In this document: positions 17,302-32,559 of the stretch, in pieces
Layout of the letters: every line of letters starts with the position of its first letter
How positions within the stretch are numbered: position 1 is the first letter of the stretch
Virus record (IMG/VR): IMGVR_UViG_3300014257_000015
Coordinates: 32,001-96,000 of that record
Reading direction: 5' to 3' (one strand)
DNA length: 64,000 nt
Source of the DNA: a virus
The notes under the pieces: model-generated
The model's input: only the letters and a program-made list of their open reading frames with translations
Databases searched by the model: none
Told to the model about the DNA's origin: nothing
Translations under genes and position numbers: made by a program

Positions 17302-17620
17302 TGAAATCAGAGTTTGGTTGAGTGGCCAAGAGATCGAAGGATTGCCCGCTTTGCGTGAGCGTGAGCGTGAGCCAGAAGCGAAACATCCGCCGAAGGCAAT
17401 GAAAACGCCTGCCGATATGCGCAACCAAGGGAGATATCGGCTGCACCGTGATGACTCCGGTCACGTCATCGATGCCACTTTGTATTTTGGAAAGTACAAT
17501 GGGTTCTGCCTAAGTAAACTTTCAACCAATAGAGAAGGGAAGGACTACCTGTCATGGATGTTGAAACAGGACTTCCCTGGTGAATTGGTGGAGTTGATCA
17601 CCAGTATGGGATGGGCGTGA
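17285..17620 (+). CDS. small protein with FGKY..YL.W motif (exonuclease X C-terminal/DUF3820-like)
   Basis: LYFGKYNG....DYLSWMLKQDFP; coupled to dnaE. Confidence 0.6.
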   Translation: MMPTIDEIRVWLSGQEIEGLPALREREREPEAKHPPKAMKTPADMRNQGRYRLHRDDSGHVIDATLYFGKYNGFCLSKLSTNREGKDYLSWMLKQDFPGELVELITSMGWA

Positions 17621-20600
17621 TGGAAGACTTTGTAGGGTTGCACAACCATTCGGATGCTAGCCAACTAGACGGTGCTGGGAAAATATCCGAATACATCAAG
17701 GCCGTAGTCGAACGCAAGGCGCCTTCAATCGCTTTCACCGAACACGGGACAATGCGCGGGTACCAGACGCAATATGATCAATGCAAAGAACACAACATCA
17801 AGCCAATTTATGGGATTGAATTCTATGTGGCCAATGACATGCGTCGAAAGGGCCTAACCGAAGACGAGCGCGCGGACATCACGAAAGGCAAACCTCGAAG
17901 CGAGCACAAAGATGCCATCAAGAAGTATGAAGAGCAACACGGCATCCGAGACAGATGGCATTTGACGTGCTGGGCGAAGAACGCAGAGGGAATGCGGAAT
18001 ATGATGCGCTTGGCGTCGCTTGCATACACCGAGGGGTTCTACTACAAGCCGCGCATTGACTTGAACGAACTGTACAAGTACAAAGAGGGGTTGGTGGTGG
18101 CGACGGGATGTTGTTCCAGCGTCATCTATGACAGGGCCGTGTTGGGGAAAAAGAAGCTTGCATTAGAAATTGCCGATGAGATGCGTGAACAATTTGGGGA
18201 AGATTTGTGGATTGAGATACAACCGCACGCAATCGAAGAGCAGGTGATCTCCAACCAGTTGGCACTGGAATTGAAGGATAGGTGGGGGAAGAAGGCGCGC
18301 CTGCTTGCAACGCAAGACGCACATTATGTCAGGCCGGAAGATTGGGAAACGCATGAAGTGATGCTCTGTATCGGAACCAATGATGTGATGAGCAACCCCG
18401 AGCGTTTTCGTTTCACCGGGAATGATTTTCATTTCAAAACCCGAAAGGAAATGTTTGCGAAGTTCAGATCAACACACGCTTACTTGACCAGAGAGCAAGT
18501 CAAAGAATCTTTGGACAACACGTTGGTGTTCATGGACACAATATCTGATGGCCTGGTTACCATCGATAAAGACAAGTGTCTCATGCCACCAATACCGGTT
18601 CCTGAGAAGTATGACGGCAATGAGTTCGCATACTTGAAGGATTTGTGTTTGCGCGGTTGGGCATGGCGTGACATACCGGCCCGCGCCACTCTGTTGTCAA
18701 AGCGCGAGGGCGGCGACGAAGCAGAATGGCTGAAACGATACGTGGCAAGGTTGAAAAGAGAACTGACAGCAATCAAAAGCCAAAAGTTTGTTTCATATTT
18801 CCTTCTTGTTCACGATTTATACAATTGGGTGCGCCAGCAGGAAATCATGTGTGGGCCTGGACGAGGCTCAGCGGCGGGTTCGCTCGTTGCATACCTGACC
18901 GGCATCACATCGGTTGATCCGATAGAGCACAATCTGTTGTTCGAACGATTCATAAGCCCAACGCGTGTCGACCAGCCCGATATTGATATGGACTTTGAGG
19001 ATCGGCGCCGACAAGAGATCATCGAGTATCTGCGAAACAAATACGGCAATGATAAGGTGTGTCAGATTGCCACCGTAGGCAAGCTTTCGGGGAAGGCTGT
19101 AATCAGAGACATATCGCGTGTTCTTGAAGTGCCGTATGCAGCAGTAAACCAAGTCACCAATTCCATCATCGAAAGAAGCAGCGGCGACGAGCGGGCCAGC
19201 CAGACGGTTGAGGACTCTTTCAAAGAATTCAAGGTGTGTCGCGAATTCAACGCCAAATACCCGGATGTTCTGAGATATGCGAAGAAGCTCGAAGGAATGG
19301 CCAAGACGCTTGGAATACACGCAGCAGGCGTCGTGACTTCTCCTGAACCGTTGATGAATCTTGTCCCATTGGAGACGAGAAAGCATGATGGCCGTGACGT
19401 TGTGGTGAGCGCCATCGATATGTACGGGGTGGCAGCGTGTGGGTTGCTGAAATTGGACGTTCTTGGGCTGCGAACGCTGAGTGTCATTCGTGAATGTCTA
19501 GAAGCAGTTGAACAACACACTGGTGAAAAGATCGACCTCGAACGCATTGATTTGAATTTGAAAGACGTTCTTCAAGGATTCACAGATCACGATTATTGTG
19601 GCGTGTTTCAGTATGATTCCCCGGGTGCCGACAAGATTTGCACAGGCGTTGAGTTCAAACACTTCGAGGACATCGCTGCCATGACAGCGTTGAATCGACC
19701 GGGCACCGCGCGAAGCGGCCTAGCCACGCAATATGTGGCACGAAAGCGCAACCCGAAATTGGTTGAAAAGGCATCGTTTCACCCAGCGGTGAGTGAAATC
19801 ACGAAAGACACATTGGGAATCATCGTGTATCAAGAGCACGTGATGCGTATTTTCACCGACATAGCCGGGTTTGCCCCAGCAACGGCGGACAGCTTGCGCA
19901 AGAAAATAGCCAAAAAATTTGGCGATGAGACGATTGGAAAAGAACGCGAGAATTTCATTAAGGGTGCGATGGAAAATTGGGGTGACCGAGGGATGACCAA
20001 AGAGATCGCAGGAAAGATAATGGATGCGATCACGTTCTTTGGATGTATACCTGGTGAATCGTTGGTTTTAGTGGTCGAGGGAAGTGATGAAGACTTGTGC
20101 GCATTGCGAGAGGAAAGTGTTGGCAAGGGGATTGTGCTCAATACACTACCAGAGGGAATACAGGAAGGAAAGAACGGTGATCGGGAATCCTGTGAGTTCA
20201 GAGCACAACAAGATAGGGGTGCTTGGGCGCGGGTGGAAGTCAGCGCCTGGGGCGAGGGTCATTGCGTCGAACAAGTTGCAATCCAAGAAGATAACAGGGG
20301 CATTAAATCCGTCTTGGAAGGGCGGACACATCAAAAACTTCAAACTAGCAAGGAACAGGTTGTTGAAGGAAGAGAAGGGATGTTGTCGTTGCGGCACTTC
20401 GTTGATCAAGGGATCAGGGCCGAATCAAAAGTCATTTCACATCCACCACAAGAATCGAAACAAAGCGGACAACCGAGAAGAGAACTTGGAAGTGCTGTGT
20501 CAAAGTTGCCACAGCAAAGAACACACGAAAGAAAAAATTGCTGGGCGACTTGGAAAGAAATCGAAACGCTAAAGGTTGGTGATTGGATAGTGTCTTTTGA

Positions 20601-22371
20601 TGACGACATTCGCCCCGAGCTAAATAGAGTGAAAAGAATAGAGTGCACAGGGGTGAAGCCTGTCCGCAGGATGACACTCGAACAAGGCGAAATTTGGGCG
20701 ACCGGATCGCATTGGTGGATGAATAGCACAGGGGAATATATAGAGACAAAGGATTGCACGCCTGGTACAGAATTGCGTGTTGGTGATTCGATTTTCAAGG
20801 TTCTTGGTAATCGAAAAGATGGGCGATTGAAGACTTGGGACTTGGAGTGCGAATTCGAACCTAGCAACTATGCCGTCAGATTATTCAACAGCGATTCGTG
20901 TAATTACTTGATAAGCCATAATAGTTATGGATTCAACAAGTCGCATGCCACCGCATATGGAATCATCGCGTATTGGGAAATGTTCTTGAAAATACGCCAC
21001 CCGATCGAATTCTATTGGGCGCTATTGAAGAACGAACCTGACCGAATACGAATCCAACAGATCGCTAAAGATGCTAAAAAACATGGCATAGAATTGTTGC
21101 CGCCGTCGGTGGTGAATAGCGGTAAGCATTTCACAATAGACAGAGCAAATAATGCCATTCGTGGTTCGCTCGTCGACATCAAGGGCGTAGGTGATGCTGC
21201 GTCTGAATCAATCATGGTCGCCCAACCATACAAGGACTTCGGTGACTTGATTCAACGCGTGGACCGCCGAAAAGTACACAAGGGTGTCATTGTGGCATTG
21301 GCGAAGGCCGGGGCGTTAGATGACGTGGTGCCGAATCCTAAGTGGCTGATAGAAAACATCGAAGATTTTTGGACAGAGTTGGGGAAGAAGGGGTGGACAG
21401 AGAAAACAGAAAGATTGTTGCGAGATTCGGCTGATGCTCCGCAGTTCACCACCGAAGAGAGGCAGGTTGTGGCCTCGAAGGTTAGTCCACTCGCATTCGG
21501 GAAACATCCGCTCGATGCGTATGCGAATTTCATGGAACGTAGTGTGAAGGTTCCCATCGCGGCAATGTCTGATGAAGACTTTTTCAAAGACAATGACAAT
21601 CAAGGCGTATTCATCGCTGGCGTCGTTGTTGAGGTGAAGTACAATCAAATTGGAGATTTCAACACAGGTGAGCTTCCCAGTGAGTTGGAAAGGAAACAGA
21701 TGTTCTGGGGCCGCCGTTACGCCAATGTTAATGTCGAAGATCTTGGCGGGAAACAAAATAGGATCAAAGTGGATTTTGACATCTTTGATGATTATCGAGA
21801 TGTGGTTGATTCTGGAATAGGAACGCCTGTTGTTCTTCATGCTTTTGTGAACGCGAGGTTTGAGAATTTACGTTGTCATTTCATGATCAATCTGGAAGAG
21901 TACAGGCTAGCAGTCGAAGCAGGACAAGAGTTGACAGTGTGGCAAAGCATAGTCGCTGGTCGCCATCCAGCCAAAGAATATGAATGGAAAGATCCGTCAA
22001 AGTTGATCAAATACAAGACCCCAGAGGGCGAAGAGCGCGAGGTGAAAAGGCGTTCCAATGCAATCAGGAACAAAGCATTTTGGGATCGCGTATCACCTTC
22101 GTTTGTTGGCGTTGTCACGCACGTTCGGCCAAAATATGACAAGAATGGAAACCGGATGGCATTCTTGGGATTGCTGGACGGTGGTTCGCGATTCATCAGC
22201 GTGATAGCATTCGCATCCAGTTGGACAAAAGAAGTGCGACGTGTTTTGAAACCCGGGGCGTTGGTGAAAATAGAATTGGACTCCAAAAGAGACAAACGCA
22301 GTTGGTCATATTTCTACAACGGCGGAAAACTCAGGGTTCTGAGGTCAGCGCCATCAACCACATCACCATAG
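17620..22371 (+). CDS. dnaE: DNA polymerase III alpha subunit, intein-containing
   Basis: PHP LHNHSDAS.LDG, GRGSAAGS, PDIDMDF, HAAGVV, KLDVLGL, YQE, GFNKSH, OB folds. Confidence 0.97.
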   Translation: MEDFVGLHNHSDASQLDGAGKISEYIKAVVERKAPSIAFTEHGTMRGYQTQYDQCKEHNIKPIYGIEFYVANDMRRKGLTEDERADITKGKPRSEHKDAIKKYEEQHGIRDRWHLTCWAKNAEGMRNMMRLASLAYTEGFYYKPRIDLNELYKYKEGLVVATGCCSSVIYDRAVLGKKKLALEIADEMREQFGEDLWIEIQPHAIEEQVISNQLALELKDRWGKKARLLATQDAHYVRPEDWETHEVMLCIGTNDVMSNPERFRFTGNDFHFKTRKEMFAKFRSTHAYLTREQVKESLDNTLVFMDTISDGLVTIDKDKCLMPPIPVPEKYDGNEFAYLKDLCLRGWAWRDIPARATLLSKREGGDEAEWLKRYVARLKRELTAIKSQKFVSYFLLVHDLYNWVRQQEIMCGPGRGSAAGSLVAYLTGITSVDPIEHNLLFERFISPTRVDQPDIDMDFEDRRRQEIIEYLRNKYGNDKVCQIATVGKLSGKAVIRDISRVLEVPYAAVNQVTNSIIERSSGDERASQTVEDSFKEFKVCREFNAKYPDVLRYAKKLEGMAKTLGIHAAGVVTSPEPLMNLVPLETRKHDGRDVVVSAIDMYGVAACGLLKLDVLGLRTLSVIRECLEAVEQHTGEKIDLERIDLNLKDVLQGFTDHDYCGVFQYDSPGADKICTGVEFKHFEDIAAMTALNRPGTARSGLATQYVARKRNPKLVEKASFHPAVSEITKDTLGIIVYQEHVMRIFTDIAGFAPATADSLRKKIAKKFGDETIGKERENFIKGAMENWGDRGMTKEIAGKIMDAITFFGCIPGESLVLVVEGSDEDLCALREESVGKGIVLNTLPEGIQEGKNGDRESCEFRAQQDRGAWARVEVSAWGEGHCVEQVAIQEDNRGIKSVLEGRTHQKLQTSKEQVVEGREGMLSLRHFVDQGIRAESKVISHPPQESKQSGQPRRELGSAVSKLPQQRTHERKNCWATWKEIETLKVGDWIVSFDDDIRPELNRVKRIECTGVKPVRRMTLEQGEIWATGSHWWMNSTGEYIETKDCTPGTELRVGDSIFKVLGNRKDGRLKTWDLECEFEPSNYAVRLFNSDSCNYLISHNSYGFNKSHATAYGIIAYWEMFLKIRHPIEFYWALLKNEPDRIRIQQIAKDAKKHGIELLPPSVVNSGKHFTIDRANNAIRGSLVDIKGVGDAASESIMVAQPYKDFGDLIQRVDRRKVHKGVIVALAKAGALDDVVPNPKWLIENIEDFWTELGKKGWTEKTERLLRDSADAPQFTTEERQVVASKVSPLAFGKHPLDAYANFMERSVKVPIAAMSDEDFFKDNDNQGVFIAGVVVEVKYNQIGDFNTGELPSELERKQMFWGRRYANVNVEDLGGKQNRIKVDFDIFDDYRDVVDSGIGTPVVLHAFVNARFENLRCHFMINLEEYRLAVEAGQELTVWQSIVAGRHPAKEYEWKDPSKLIKYKTPEGEEREVKRRSNAIRNKAFWDRVSPSFVGVVTHVRPKYDKNGNRMAFLGLLDGGSRFISVIAFASSWTKEVRRVLKPGALVKIELDSKRDKRSWSYFYNGGKLRVLRSAPSTTSP
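20044..20922 (+). mobile_element. class-1 intein in DnaE (293 aa; ~137 aa HINT core + ~156 aa insert)
   Basis: exteins ITFFG|...|SYGFNKSH; starts CIPGESLV, WKEIETLKVGD, block B ATGSH, block F TWDLE..PSNY, ends SHN/S. Confidence 0.93.
20087..20572 (+). CDS. HNH homing endonuclease encoded in the +1 frame inside the intein
   Basis: CAHC..VLARGLCSIHY, NPSWKGG, CCRCG..HIHHKNRNKADNREENLEVLCQSCHSKEH; GAGGGA SD just upstream of ATG. Confidence 0.9.
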   Translation: MKTCAHCERKVLARGLCSIHYQREYRKERTVIGNPVSSEHNKIGVLGRGWKSAPGARVIASNKLQSKKITGALNPSWKGGHIKNFKLARNRLLKEEKGCCRCGTSLIKGSGPNQKSFHIHHKNRNKADNREENLEVLCQSCHSKEHTKEKIAGRLGKKSKR

Positions 22372-23289: not shown

Positions 23290-24546
23290 ATGGCTATCGA
23301 CATGAAGAAGATGAAGAAACACAAAGAAGAACTGGCCACTGGCGGCGAGTTCCTCACATACCCATCGGGCGAGACGCGAATATACATCCACGGGCAATGT
23401 CGCCCTGATGATGAGACGCCACCCACCGCTGGATTCCCTTGGGTTCCTATCACTGTTCATTTCAATGTTGGCAAGAACAATGCGATGTGTGTTTGCCTTG
23501 ACAAGAACAGAAACGAGATTTTGAAACACCCGTATTTGAAGGGAATGTTGAAGGCGCGAAAGAATGCGCCGAAGCTCGATGGGACGTGCCCTGTTTGTGA
23601 AGAGATTGAAAACGGCGGGATGGATTCCGAGGAAGCCACAGAAGCTCGCCCACAGACGAAGTGGTTGTGGGGAACAACCAAAATCGCGTCGCGTGGCAAA
23701 GGTGATGATGATTGGAATGCGCAATCATTCAAGCCGGGCGTGACGATGGCTAACAAGACCATACACACCGGATTCATCGACATTTTCGACCAGGCTGGCG
23801 ATGTTACGGATGTGCAAGAAGCCACGTTGGCCATTGTTGGACGAGAGGGGAAAGGGAAAAATGACACCAAGTACAAGGTGTCTGTTGATGTTCCAACGAT
23901 AAAGAGTCCATTGAAATTGGACAAGAAATGTCGTGGCGCTTTGAAAGTCGCTATGAGCGAGGGCGGCGATTGTGATTTGTTCAAGATCGCGGCAAATATG
24001 ATCAAATCACCGGCCGAAATCAGAGCAATGCTGACTGGTGTAAAAATGGAAGACCCTGATGATGACGATGACGACGAGGCTGAGTTGGAAGAGTCGTTGA
24101 AGAAGGGGAAAAAATCGCGCATCATCGACGATGACGACGATGATGAAGACGAGCCGCCTAAGAAGTCAAAGAAAAAGGTCGTTGTCGATGAAGATGACGA
24201 CGATGACGAAGACGAAGACGAGCCGCCTAAGAAGTCAAAGAAAAAAGCCGTTGTCGACGATGAAGATGACGACGAAGACGAAGACGAACCGCCGAAAAAG
24301 TCAAAGAAAAAAGCCGTTGTCGATGATGACGATAATGATGATGAAGACGATGAAGACGATGAAGACGATGAAGACGATGATGAACCGCCGAAGAAGTCAA
24401 AGAAAAAAGCCGTTGTCGAAGACGACGATGACGATGACGAACCACCTAAGAAGTCCAAAAAGTCAAAGAAAAAGGATGAAAGCGACGAGCTAGACGATTT
24501 GGACGACGAGCTGGAAAGAATCACGAAATCAAAGAAGGGGAAGTGA
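23290..24546 (+). CDS. probable ssDNA-binding protein (gp32-like) with very long D/E-K repeat tail
   Basis: H..C..CPVC Zn ligands, GKGKNDTKY, ~165 aa acidic tail; precedes recA. Confidence 0.7.
   Translation: MAIDMKKMKKHKEELATGGEFLTYPSGETRIYIHGQCRPDDETPPTAGFPWVPITVHFNVGKNNAMCVCLDKNRNEILKHPYLKGMLKARKNAPKLDGTCPVCEEIENGGMDSEEATEARPQTKWLWGTTKIASRGKGDDDWNAQSFKPGVTMANKTIHTGFIDIFDQAGDVTDVQEATLAIVGREGKGKNDTKYKVSVDVPTIKSPLKLDKKCRGALKVAMSEGGDCDLFKIAANMIKSPAEIRAMLTGVKMEDPDDDDDDEAELEESLKKGKKSRIIDDDDDDEDEPPKKSKKKVVVDEDDDDDEDEDEPPKKSKKKAVVDDEDDDEDEDEPPKKSKKKAVVDDDDNDDEDDEDDEDDEDDDEPPKKSKKKAVVEDDDDDDEPPKKSKKSKKKDESDELDDLDDELERITKSKKGK
24058..24510 (+). repeat. coding repeat (D/E)n-EPPKKSKKK(A/V)VV x5
   Basis: GARCCRCCNAARAAGTC-type units repeated five times with GAY/GAA tracts between. 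Confidence 0.9.
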
Positions 24547-31962: not shown

Positions 31963-32559
31963 ATGTTGAATCGAAAGCTCAAGGCATTGGATAGGATTGA
32001 AGGTGTTTGGGCTGATTGCGAAGAGTGCCCGCTGTCTATGGGTCGCAACAGAATAGTGTATTGGAGGGGTTCGCCTGAGGCAAGGTTGGTGGCAATCGGC
32101 GAAGGCCCGGGGCGAGATGAAGATGAACGCGGGATTCCGTTTGTTGGCGATGCTGGAAAGACATTGGATGGGTTGCTGTCTGAGGCTGGCCTATCGGTGG
32201 TGGACGATATCTTCATCACAAACGTTGTAGGGTGTCGCCCGCCGAACAACAGACAGCCGACGTTCGATGAAATGAAATCATGCCAAGAACGTTTGGAATC
32301 TATGCTTTGGGTGGTATCGCCACGTTGTTTATTGCTCATGGGCGGAACGGCTGCCAGGTTGACTGGTGTTCAGAAGGTTGGACAATGGCGTGGAAGCGAA
32401 ACGACCACCGAGATGATTCTTTTGGGGAAGAAACTTGTGAGGTACAAGACGGTGGTGACTTGGCATCCGTCGTATCTGAATCGCAAGGGTGGGGATGCGC
32501 AAATACGCGAGCAGATGATACACGACATCAAGCTCGCGTTCAATTTGGCGATGGAGTGA
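31963..32559 (+). CDS. uracil-DNA glycosylase family 4
   Basis: CEECPL, GEGPG..ED..G.PFVG.AG, CRPPNNR, HPSY. Confidence 0.92.
   Translation: MLNRKLKALDRIEGVWADCEECPLSMGRNRIVYWRGSPEARLVAIGEGPGRDEDERGIPFVGDAGKTLDGLLSEAGLSVVDDIFITNVVGCRPPNNRQPTFDEMKSCQERLESMLWVVSPRCLLLMGGTAARLTGVQKVGQWRGSETTTEMILLGKKLVRYKTVVTWHPSYLNRKGGDAQIREQMIHDIKLAFNLAME

Follow-up and report, generated by a model that had tools for sequence, protein, structure and literature searches.

The subject of this report is a 64,000-nucleotide stretch of DNA, called the window throughout (positions 32,001 to 96,000 of IMG/VR record IMGVR_UViG_3300014257_000015), which belongs to a virus record of 105,429 bp that is complete and has direct terminal repeats. 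The DnaE-like DNA polymerase III alpha gene in this window contains a mini-intein whose 137-residue Hint domain (13 + 124 aa) is split by a 156-codon insert, and the same DNA, read in the +1 frame, is a complete HNH homing-endonuclease gene. From sequence comparison, the arrangement is probably a composite selfish element with two genes on one stretch of DNA, a mini-intein that would be spliced out of DnaE and an out-of-frame HNH gene that would be translated separately and drive homing; a probability of about 0.85 is assigned to this reading. An earlier reading of the window, made from the letters alone and referred to below as the sequence-only reading, had described a mini-intein of about 137 aa split by 156 codons and a complete HNH gene with its own GAGGGA, ATG and TAA; its coordinates and counts proved correct, and the nesting of the one gene within the other in a different frame is now supported by comparative data from related inteins. 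The features concerned, all on the + strand and numbered from the first nucleotide of the window, are listed below.

17611–22371, + strand: DnaE-like DNA polymerase III alpha gene of 1586 codons, from the list of open reading frames (ORFs), with Pfam PHP, DNA_pol3_alpha, finger and HHH_6 domains
20035–20043, + strand: N-extein junction codons F-F-G; intein-less homologs read FFGSYGFNKSH
20044–20922, + strand: whole intein, 293 codons, with C1, TxxH (T220, H223), block-F D266 and H292-N293, then the +1 Ser
20044–20082, + strand: Hint N-segment, block A, strands beta-1 and beta-2, CIPGESLVLVVEG (13 aa), from alignment A2 and DSSP strands 2–3 and 7–12, with pLDDT values (predicted scores in the local distance difference test) above 90
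20077–20082, + strand: Shine-Dalgarno (SD)-like GAGGGA, 4 nt before the ATG, identical with intein codons E12-G13
20083–20550, + strand: insert as read in the DnaE frame, 156 codons, a polar filler that is not conserved and for which a disordered loop is predicted
20087–20572, + strand, frame +1: HNH homing-endonuclease gene, 161 codons plus TAA (20570–20572), with its ATG at 20087
20381–20527, + strand: predicted HNH beta-beta-alpha-metal core, HNH residues 99–147, from the Pfam match and pLDDT 82–91
20551–20922, + strand: Hint C-segment, 124 codons, blocks B, F and G, from alignment A2, pLDDT 92–98
20923–20946, + strand: C-extein junction codons SYGFNKSH with the +1 nucleophile Ser, from the sequence and the intein-less homologs

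Anatomy of the Interrupted Intein

The intein extends from the Cys codon at 20044–20046 to the Asn codon at 20920–20922 and is inserted in frame at FFG|SYGFNKSH, a conserved site that is uninterrupted (...AITFFG-SYGFNKSH...) in the intein-less DnaE homologs L002 and L003. Its first 13 and last 124 residues (WKEIETLKVGD to LISHN) align with mini-inteins of 138–147 aa at the same site, in which the 156 insert codons have no counterpart. The segments CIPGESLVLVVEG and WKEIETLKVGD, which lie 156 codons apart in the window, are adjacent in the other homologs of alignment A2 (L028 carries a gene of its own in the same loop). The residues that define class-1 inteins are in place and invariant in A2, namely C1 of block A, the His of T220-G-S-H223 in block B, and D266, H292 and N293 of blocks F and G, directly followed by the Ser of SYGFNKSH. 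The Pfam intein models gave no match to the window's intein.

An AlphaFold model of the 293-aa intein was built from a 15-sequence alignment and has pLDDT values of 90–98 at residues 1–20 and 171–293, and below 50 at residues 45–156. In this model, beta-2 occupies residues 7–12, the insert starts at residue 14 and the next strand spans residues 166–172. A Foldseek search with the model yielded 44 PDB matches at E ≤ 1e-3, the top ones being intein structures, first among them the NpuDnaE intein 4kl5 (E 2e-6, target template-modelling score 0.77); the matches listed are intein, bacterial intein-like (BIL) or Hedgehog Hint-domain structures, including the naturally S1-split VidaL intein. As modelled, the window's intein has the Hint fold. 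Because the complete phage genome (G000) contains a single copy of the DnaE gene, the polymerase would depend on splicing; this dependence, together with the intact motifs, suggests that the intein does splice.

The HNH gene spans nucleotides 43–529 of the intein, directly after beta-2, and lies in the other frame without interrupting that of the host. Its product scores above the Pfam cut-offs for HNH PF01844 (26.9 bits; cut-off 21.4) and HNH_3 PF13392 (26.1 bits; cut-off 24.8). The residues that are invariant in its family are C99, C102, H118, H120, H121, N133, C138, C141 and H142, which include the catalytic set of HNH nucleases (H120/H121, N133 and H142) and a Cys4 zinc site (C99, C102, C138 and C141), and the structure model of the protein places two strands and a helix at residues 118–160 (pLDDT 82–91). 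Six-frame searches of the phage genome with the window's HNH protein, PF01844 and PF13392 found this locus alone, each time. At the 5′ end, the GAGGGA stands at a position where the inteins of relatives carry P-x-G, and a further possible start, GTG at 20084, is in the same +1 frame. At the 3′ end, the last 22 nt of the gene overlap Hint codons W170–K177 and are therefore constrained in both frames; the TAA itself is made by the conserved Leu-Lys codons of the next Hint strand.

A Family of Inteins with Out-of-Frame Inserts

A protein search with the intein region identified 24 DnaE homologs with an intein at the same site; some are the mini-inteins mentioned above, and many are 281–306 aa long, with an insert rich in Arg, Gly, Ser, Glu and Gln, like the DnaE-frame filler of the window. 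Homologous DNA was collected from viral and metagenome contigs using a degenerate pattern for the C-terminal junction, HN|SYGFN(K/R)SH; open frames were not a condition of this search. Three classes of intein were found at this DnaE site: mini-inteins, inteins with a short in-frame HNH domain in a distant DnaE clade, and inteins with the odd insert, which occur at 11 distinct loci including the window. The homologs with and without the insert that the sequence-only reading had proposed to compare are among these. All 11 odd-insert loci have a stop-to-stop ORF of 157–213 codons in the +1 frame relative to DnaE. Ten of these ORFs, including that of the window, are mutual homologs and are 41–52% identical to the window's; zinc-finger, GWK, NP, CxxCG, HVHH, NLE and CxxCH motifs are invariant among them, and each of the ten matches PF01844 at E ≤ 0.01. 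At the eleventh locus, L028, the gene is of another kind and contains two HNH_3 repeats (E 2e-19). The exteins of the carriers are only 39–65% identical, and that of L028 is the closest to the window's (65%).

Loss of the nuclease can be followed in one pair of near-identical DnaE proteins, P0008/L015 and P0011, which differ by a clean 146-codon deletion within the HNH region. The mini-intein of P0011 retains the SD and start codons and the 3′ tail of P0008/L015 and is, to judge from these remnants, a fresh nuclease-loss derivative.

Several further variants were observed. The L028 intein (L028:10402–11388, − strand; contig Ga0210374_1000001, 105,469 bp) is a sister intein whose nuclease ORF has a C-terminal CxxC...MCSMHYSRSYR motif. 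The inteins of the distant DnaE clade (L005, L007, L010, L011, L018 and L026) are about 243–253 aa long, contain a short HNH in frame and occupy the FG|SYGFNKSH site; L030 is apparently an intein of this type with a frameshift. The 158-aa protein P0034 begins in the DnaE-frame filler and finishes in the HNH frame, indicating a frameshift inside the overlap, either by decay or by assembly error. P0016, P0017 and P0021 are same-site DnaE inteins of 306–359 aa with other odd polar inserts, which may hide further out-of-frame genes; in P0017 the insert is found near residue 31, which is a third position.

Selection in the Two Reading Frames

The frames were compared using a codon alignment of the ten homologous HNH genes (45 pairs). 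The mean pairwise p-distances at the first, second and third HNH codon positions were 0.43, 0.38 and 0.62, respectively. Read in the HNH frame, the insert had an amino-acid identity of 47%, as compared with 24.5% for the DnaE frame and 25% for the third frame, which is not used; the HNH frame was the most identical in 45 of 45 pairs. These figures put the DnaE reading on a level with the unused frame, so that it is no better conserved than a non-coding frame; moreover, the first codon position of the DnaE frame is the most variable.

The DnaE frame is nevertheless free of stops at all 11 loci, vs 3–18 stops in the third frame. Synonymous shuffling of codons within each HNH gene was used to estimate how often such an open frame would arise; among 20,000 shuffles of the window's gene, the DnaE frame was open in only 0.01%, with a mean of 7.4 stops expected vs none observed, and for the individual loci the open fraction was at most 0.01% to 0.64%, against an expectation of 4–14 stops. 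The sequence-only reading had estimated the probability of the open frame at (61/64)^156, or about 5e-4, which was of the right order of magnitude. Only an HNH codon with T as its last base, followed by AA, AG or GA, can create a stop in the DnaE frame, and T was found at HNH third positions in 0 of 580 such contexts, vs 14–43% elsewhere. Together, the lack of stops and the avoidance of T are direct evidence of selection against host-frame stops. The +1 layout is the least costly arrangement for such double coding, because a synonymous T-to-C change in the nuclease gene removes any host-frame stop. Across the family, these comparisons show purifying selection on the HNH protein sequence and a relaxed host frame in which only the absence of stops is selected, as the sequence-only reading had anticipated.

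Expression Signals

In most loci, the conserved HNH region begins a few codons after a stop in its own frame and behind an SD-like motif, and an SD and start comparable to those of the window are present in eight of the ten other loci. The following signals are examples.

Window: GAGGGA, 4 nt, ATG
L015 and L025: SD and start TAGGAGGCAAAAATG
L031: SD and start TAGGAGACGAAGATG
L008: GGAGG, 7 nt, ATG
L024: GGAGG, 5 nt, TTG

When read in the host frame, the SD motifs are conserved Gly-Gly or Gly-Asp codons. A promoter scan found two sigma-70-like sites, which is no more than expected by chance, and no internal promoter is claimed for the HNH gene. Internal initiation is the most likely route to the HNH protein.

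Proposed Mechanism and Alternative Explanations

The first gene of the proposed element is the class-1 mini-intein in the only DnaE of the phage, and the second is a free-standing-type HNH gene lodged within it at a +1 offset. Ribosomes translating DnaE would read the HNH DNA as 156 polar filler codons, which would form a loop after beta-2 of the Hint fold, and the intein, filler included, would then excise to restore the polymerase. The HNH protein would be a separate product, its translation starting internally from its own SD and ATG; it would presumably cut intein-less DnaE alleles of co-infecting phages, and repair of the break would copy the intein and the nuclease gene together. The patchy distribution of empty, mini and full alleles offers indirect support for homing, and the existence of empty, mini and deletion-derivative alleles fits a homing cycle.

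Some observations weigh against the proposal that the window holds a spliced, homing element of this kind. No near-identical inteins, a sign of recent horizontal homing, were seen in divergent exteins. No close relative of the window's element was found, its HNH protein being at most 52% identical to any other. Selection is demonstrated for the family, not for the window's copy since its relocation within the intein (see below). In L021 and L016, the SD motifs are weak or stand at an unusual distance from the start. Finally, a Foldseek search with the HNH model gave no significant match (best E 0.4), its top rows being HNH/EndoVII proteins (T4 EndoVII and GVE2 HNH).

The explanation that survives best besides the composite element is that the HNH gene is an intact-looking but immobile passenger, in an element that is now inherited only vertically, and that its open frame reflects recent rather than current function. 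The HNH divergence is of similar order to that of the carriers' exteins, near-identical copies are absent from divergent hosts, and the mini-inteins and the deletion derivative show that nuclease loss occurs. However, divergence biased to third positions and catalytic residues that are invariant across deep lineages point to long-term purifying selection, which is hard to explain without activity, and this explanation is considered unlikely, if worth keeping in mind. Far less probable is programmed +1 ribosomal frameshifting from the DnaE frame, whose product would be a DnaE(N)-intein(N)-HNH fusion. One mRNA carries both frames, and the translation of elements of the ShiLan type, in which an out-of-frame HNH gene lies in a phage DNA methylase with no intein and no visible ribosome-binding site (RBS), is debated (Arsenault et al., Genes 2025, PMC11855218); however, the HNH-frame stop located a few codons upstream of the SD and the ATG or TTG in most loci leaves almost no space for a shift site, and the SD is conserved in the form of the host-frame Gly codons described above.

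Slightly less probable again is a genuine new intein domain made of the 156 in-frame residues, with an incidental +1 ORF. Similarity between homologs is recognisable in the DnaE frame (for example, LPEGIQEGKNG vs LPTKIQKRKNG), but it is no higher than in the unused frame and is a by-product of HNH conservation; in addition, the variability of the first codon position, the disorder of the modelled stretch and its absence from mini-inteins all speak against a domain. The least credible explanations are two compensating indels that hide an in-frame HNH (metagenome assemblies can contain indels, and in-frame HNH inteins exist at the same site in the other DnaE clade, in L005, L007, L010, L011 and L018) and a group I intron with its own ORF: the former, which the sequence-only reading had named as its refutation, is ruled out as a sequencing frameshift because 11 independent assemblies agree in the +1 offset and in the stops just before the HNH start and at the HNH end, and the latter because selection keeps the host frame open, which would be irrelevant to an RNA-level intron, the systematic avoidance of T at third positions being a dual-coding signature that an intron does not need, and an Rfam scan of 19800–21200 gave no family at E ≤ 1.

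Two Positions of the Nuclease Gene

In nine of the 11 odd-insert loci, the HNH gene is found at the canonical nuclease site between blocks B and F, at about nucleotides 283–808 of the intein. In the window and in L028, the nuclease gene lies outside this region, after beta-2 of block A; the gene in this loop of L028 is an unrelated HNH_3 gene, which is also in the +1 frame and shows perfect stop avoidance. The near-N-terminal position that the sequence-only reading had given stands, with the correction that it is unusual for an HNH lineage normally found at the canonical B–F site. In the HNH tree, the window's gene falls within an unresolved group (a polytomy) of canonical-site copies, which is set off from free-standing phage relatives by a weakly supported branch (50/84). 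This grouping indicates that one nuclease lineage is found at two places of the fold, and the polytomy is compatible with a move in either direction. Because nine related inteins have the same lineage at the canonical site, the window's copy reached its second permissive place either by moving or by invading a mini-intein anew. Resolution of the Hint-domain tree is poor, and the window and L028 pair in it with a Shimodaira–Hasegawa-like approximate likelihood-ratio test (SH-aLRT) value of 86 only.

The insertion point after residue 13, directly past beta-2, is the S1 split position, which is used in engineered split inteins with N-inteins of 10–12 residues (PMC3620165) and is found in the natural, atypically split inteins VidaL and PolB16 (PMC13014065). 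The window's intein resembles these in position alone, since its DnaE frame is continuous and does not give two separate polypeptides. Tentatively, the post-beta-2 loop may be a second natural landing site for nuclease genes, and the window and L028 may represent unsplit precursors of split inteins like VidaL and PolB16, a possibility that we hold to be the less probable side of the question. The S1 loop would become usable once the nuclease is translated separately, when the intein need only tolerate a disordered loop. If this is true, one stop in the filler would convert the element into an N-intein with a 13-residue core, a nuclease gene and a C-intein.

A search for S1-split DnaE relatives found none. 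The C-terminal piece P0176 begins with a 36-residue C-intein (an S0-split C-piece), which indicates a split at the canonical site. Another protein, P0180 (474 aa, on a contig of 70,669 bp), is a DnaE C-terminal piece that has about 24 intein-like residues ending in ISHN, followed by SHATAYG, without YGFNK; possibly its junction is split or shifted.

Relation to Known Systems

The suggestion in the sequence-only reading that similar architectures may have been reported in other phages was well founded, as out-of-frame and antisense nuclease genes have been published. Actinophage inteins with antisense Vsr-like or frame-3 endonuclease VII-like genes have been described (Gosselin, Arsenault, Gogarten, bioRxiv 10.1101/2025.01.02.630785), and an antisense LAGLIDADG gene in an intein dates back to Gorbalenya 1998, as cited in the same preprint. 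Like the element in the window, these non-canonical actinophage inteins are contiguous, with a separate overlapping nuclease ORF and an open host frame, and the origin proposed for them is likewise that a free-standing nuclease gene invaded an intein. They differ in that the same-strand out-of-frame case is endonuclease VII-like and in frame 3, and actinophage HNH inteins are in frame, whereas the window has an HNH gene in frame +1; in that their hosts are polymerase, capsid, terminase and ThyX genes, whereas the window's type is a DnaE intein of uncultured phages; and in that their secondary ORFs lie in the usual nuclease region, whereas that of the window follows beta-2.

Out-of-frame LAGLIDADG genes with frame-dependent selection have also been reported in cyanobacterial dnaX inteins (Gorbalenya 1998; Phillips et al., bioRxiv 10.64898/2026.09.14.751524). 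These, too, are inteins of a replication gene with an overlapping nuclease ORF and mini-intein relatives, and the low ratio of nonsynonymous to synonymous substitution (dN/dS) in the nuclease frame beside a relaxed host frame parallels the frame-dependent selection in the window's family; the nuclease type, the cellular host and the relation between the reading frames are different. The ShiLan element shares with the window an out-of-frame HNH gene that starts a few bases into the insert and stops at its end, a stop-free host frame and an in-frame product that forms a loop. It has no splicing domain, so that its filler stays in the methylase, whereas the filler in the window lies inside an intein and should be removed; ShiLan also shows no RBS, whereas the window's family has SD-like motifs. 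Fractured genes (Dassa et al. 2009, PMC2677866) likewise have a nuclease gene lodged within an intein coding sequence, but they are split inteins with a free-standing nuclease between the halves, whereas the intein in the window is unsplit and its host frame continuous.

The general kind, an out-of-frame or antisense nuclease gene in an intein, is thus already published; what is new is the HNH nuclease, the phage DnaE host and the S1 position. In full-text searches on out-of-frame or overlapping nuclease genes in inteins, we found no out-of-frame HNH gene in a DnaE intein and no contiguous intein with a nuclease gene at S1. The abstract of PMC6801210 states that a single conserved site holds all intein nuclease domains.

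Relatives of the HNH core were also seen elsewhere. At L040:1255–2967, L041:1252–2958, L047:1372–2916 and L057:1432–2763, all on uncultured viral contigs, they lie out of frame in open ORFs for C-5 cytosine DNA methylases, in the manner of ShiLan. At L061:1378–4143, a 921-aa ORF carries a Pfam intein splicing domain and runs without a stop through a 304-codon ORF that encodes an HNH relative in another + frame; L061 is a candidate for a further out-of-frame HNH intein.

Distribution

A blastn search of the region against deposited phages gave no match, and a tblastn search of the HNH protein against the same phages gave one distant match, the HNH of Xanthomonas phage DES1, with 39% identity over half of the query; the closest DnaE of a cultured phage is about 35% identical. 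A word-indexed protein search with the HNH alone found nothing. The junction pattern had no match in 185,579 prokaryote genomes, in which the HNH profile detected only partial, distant relatives, mostly in metagenome-assembled genomes (MAGs) of Patescibacteria. These partial HNH-core relatives (L070–L149) are frequent in MAGs of Patescibacteria/candidate phyla radiation (CPR) bacteria (Saccharibacteria, Paceibacterota and others), and none has the full-length architecture. Among 1.84 billion protein representatives, the family profile found only three clusters at E < 1e-30. Protein clusters are few because gene callers keep the long DnaE ORF, and annotation pipelines miss such genes, as the sequence-only reading had foreseen.

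Elsewhere in the window, at 23290–24546 on the + strand, a 418-aa ORF was noticed whose C-terminal half is extremely acidic, with repeats of Asp/Glu runs followed by PPKKSKKK(A/V)VV.

Implications

The origins of intein–nuclease pairs and of split inteins are treated in the literature as open evolutionary questions. The mini-inteins, in-frame-HNH inteins and out-of-frame-HNH inteins found at one DnaE site form a natural series in which the order of events, with the splicing domain first and nuclease invasion later, can be tested. In addition, the copy at the S1 site points to a possible origin of ultra-short N-inteins, which serve as useful tools in protein semisynthesis.

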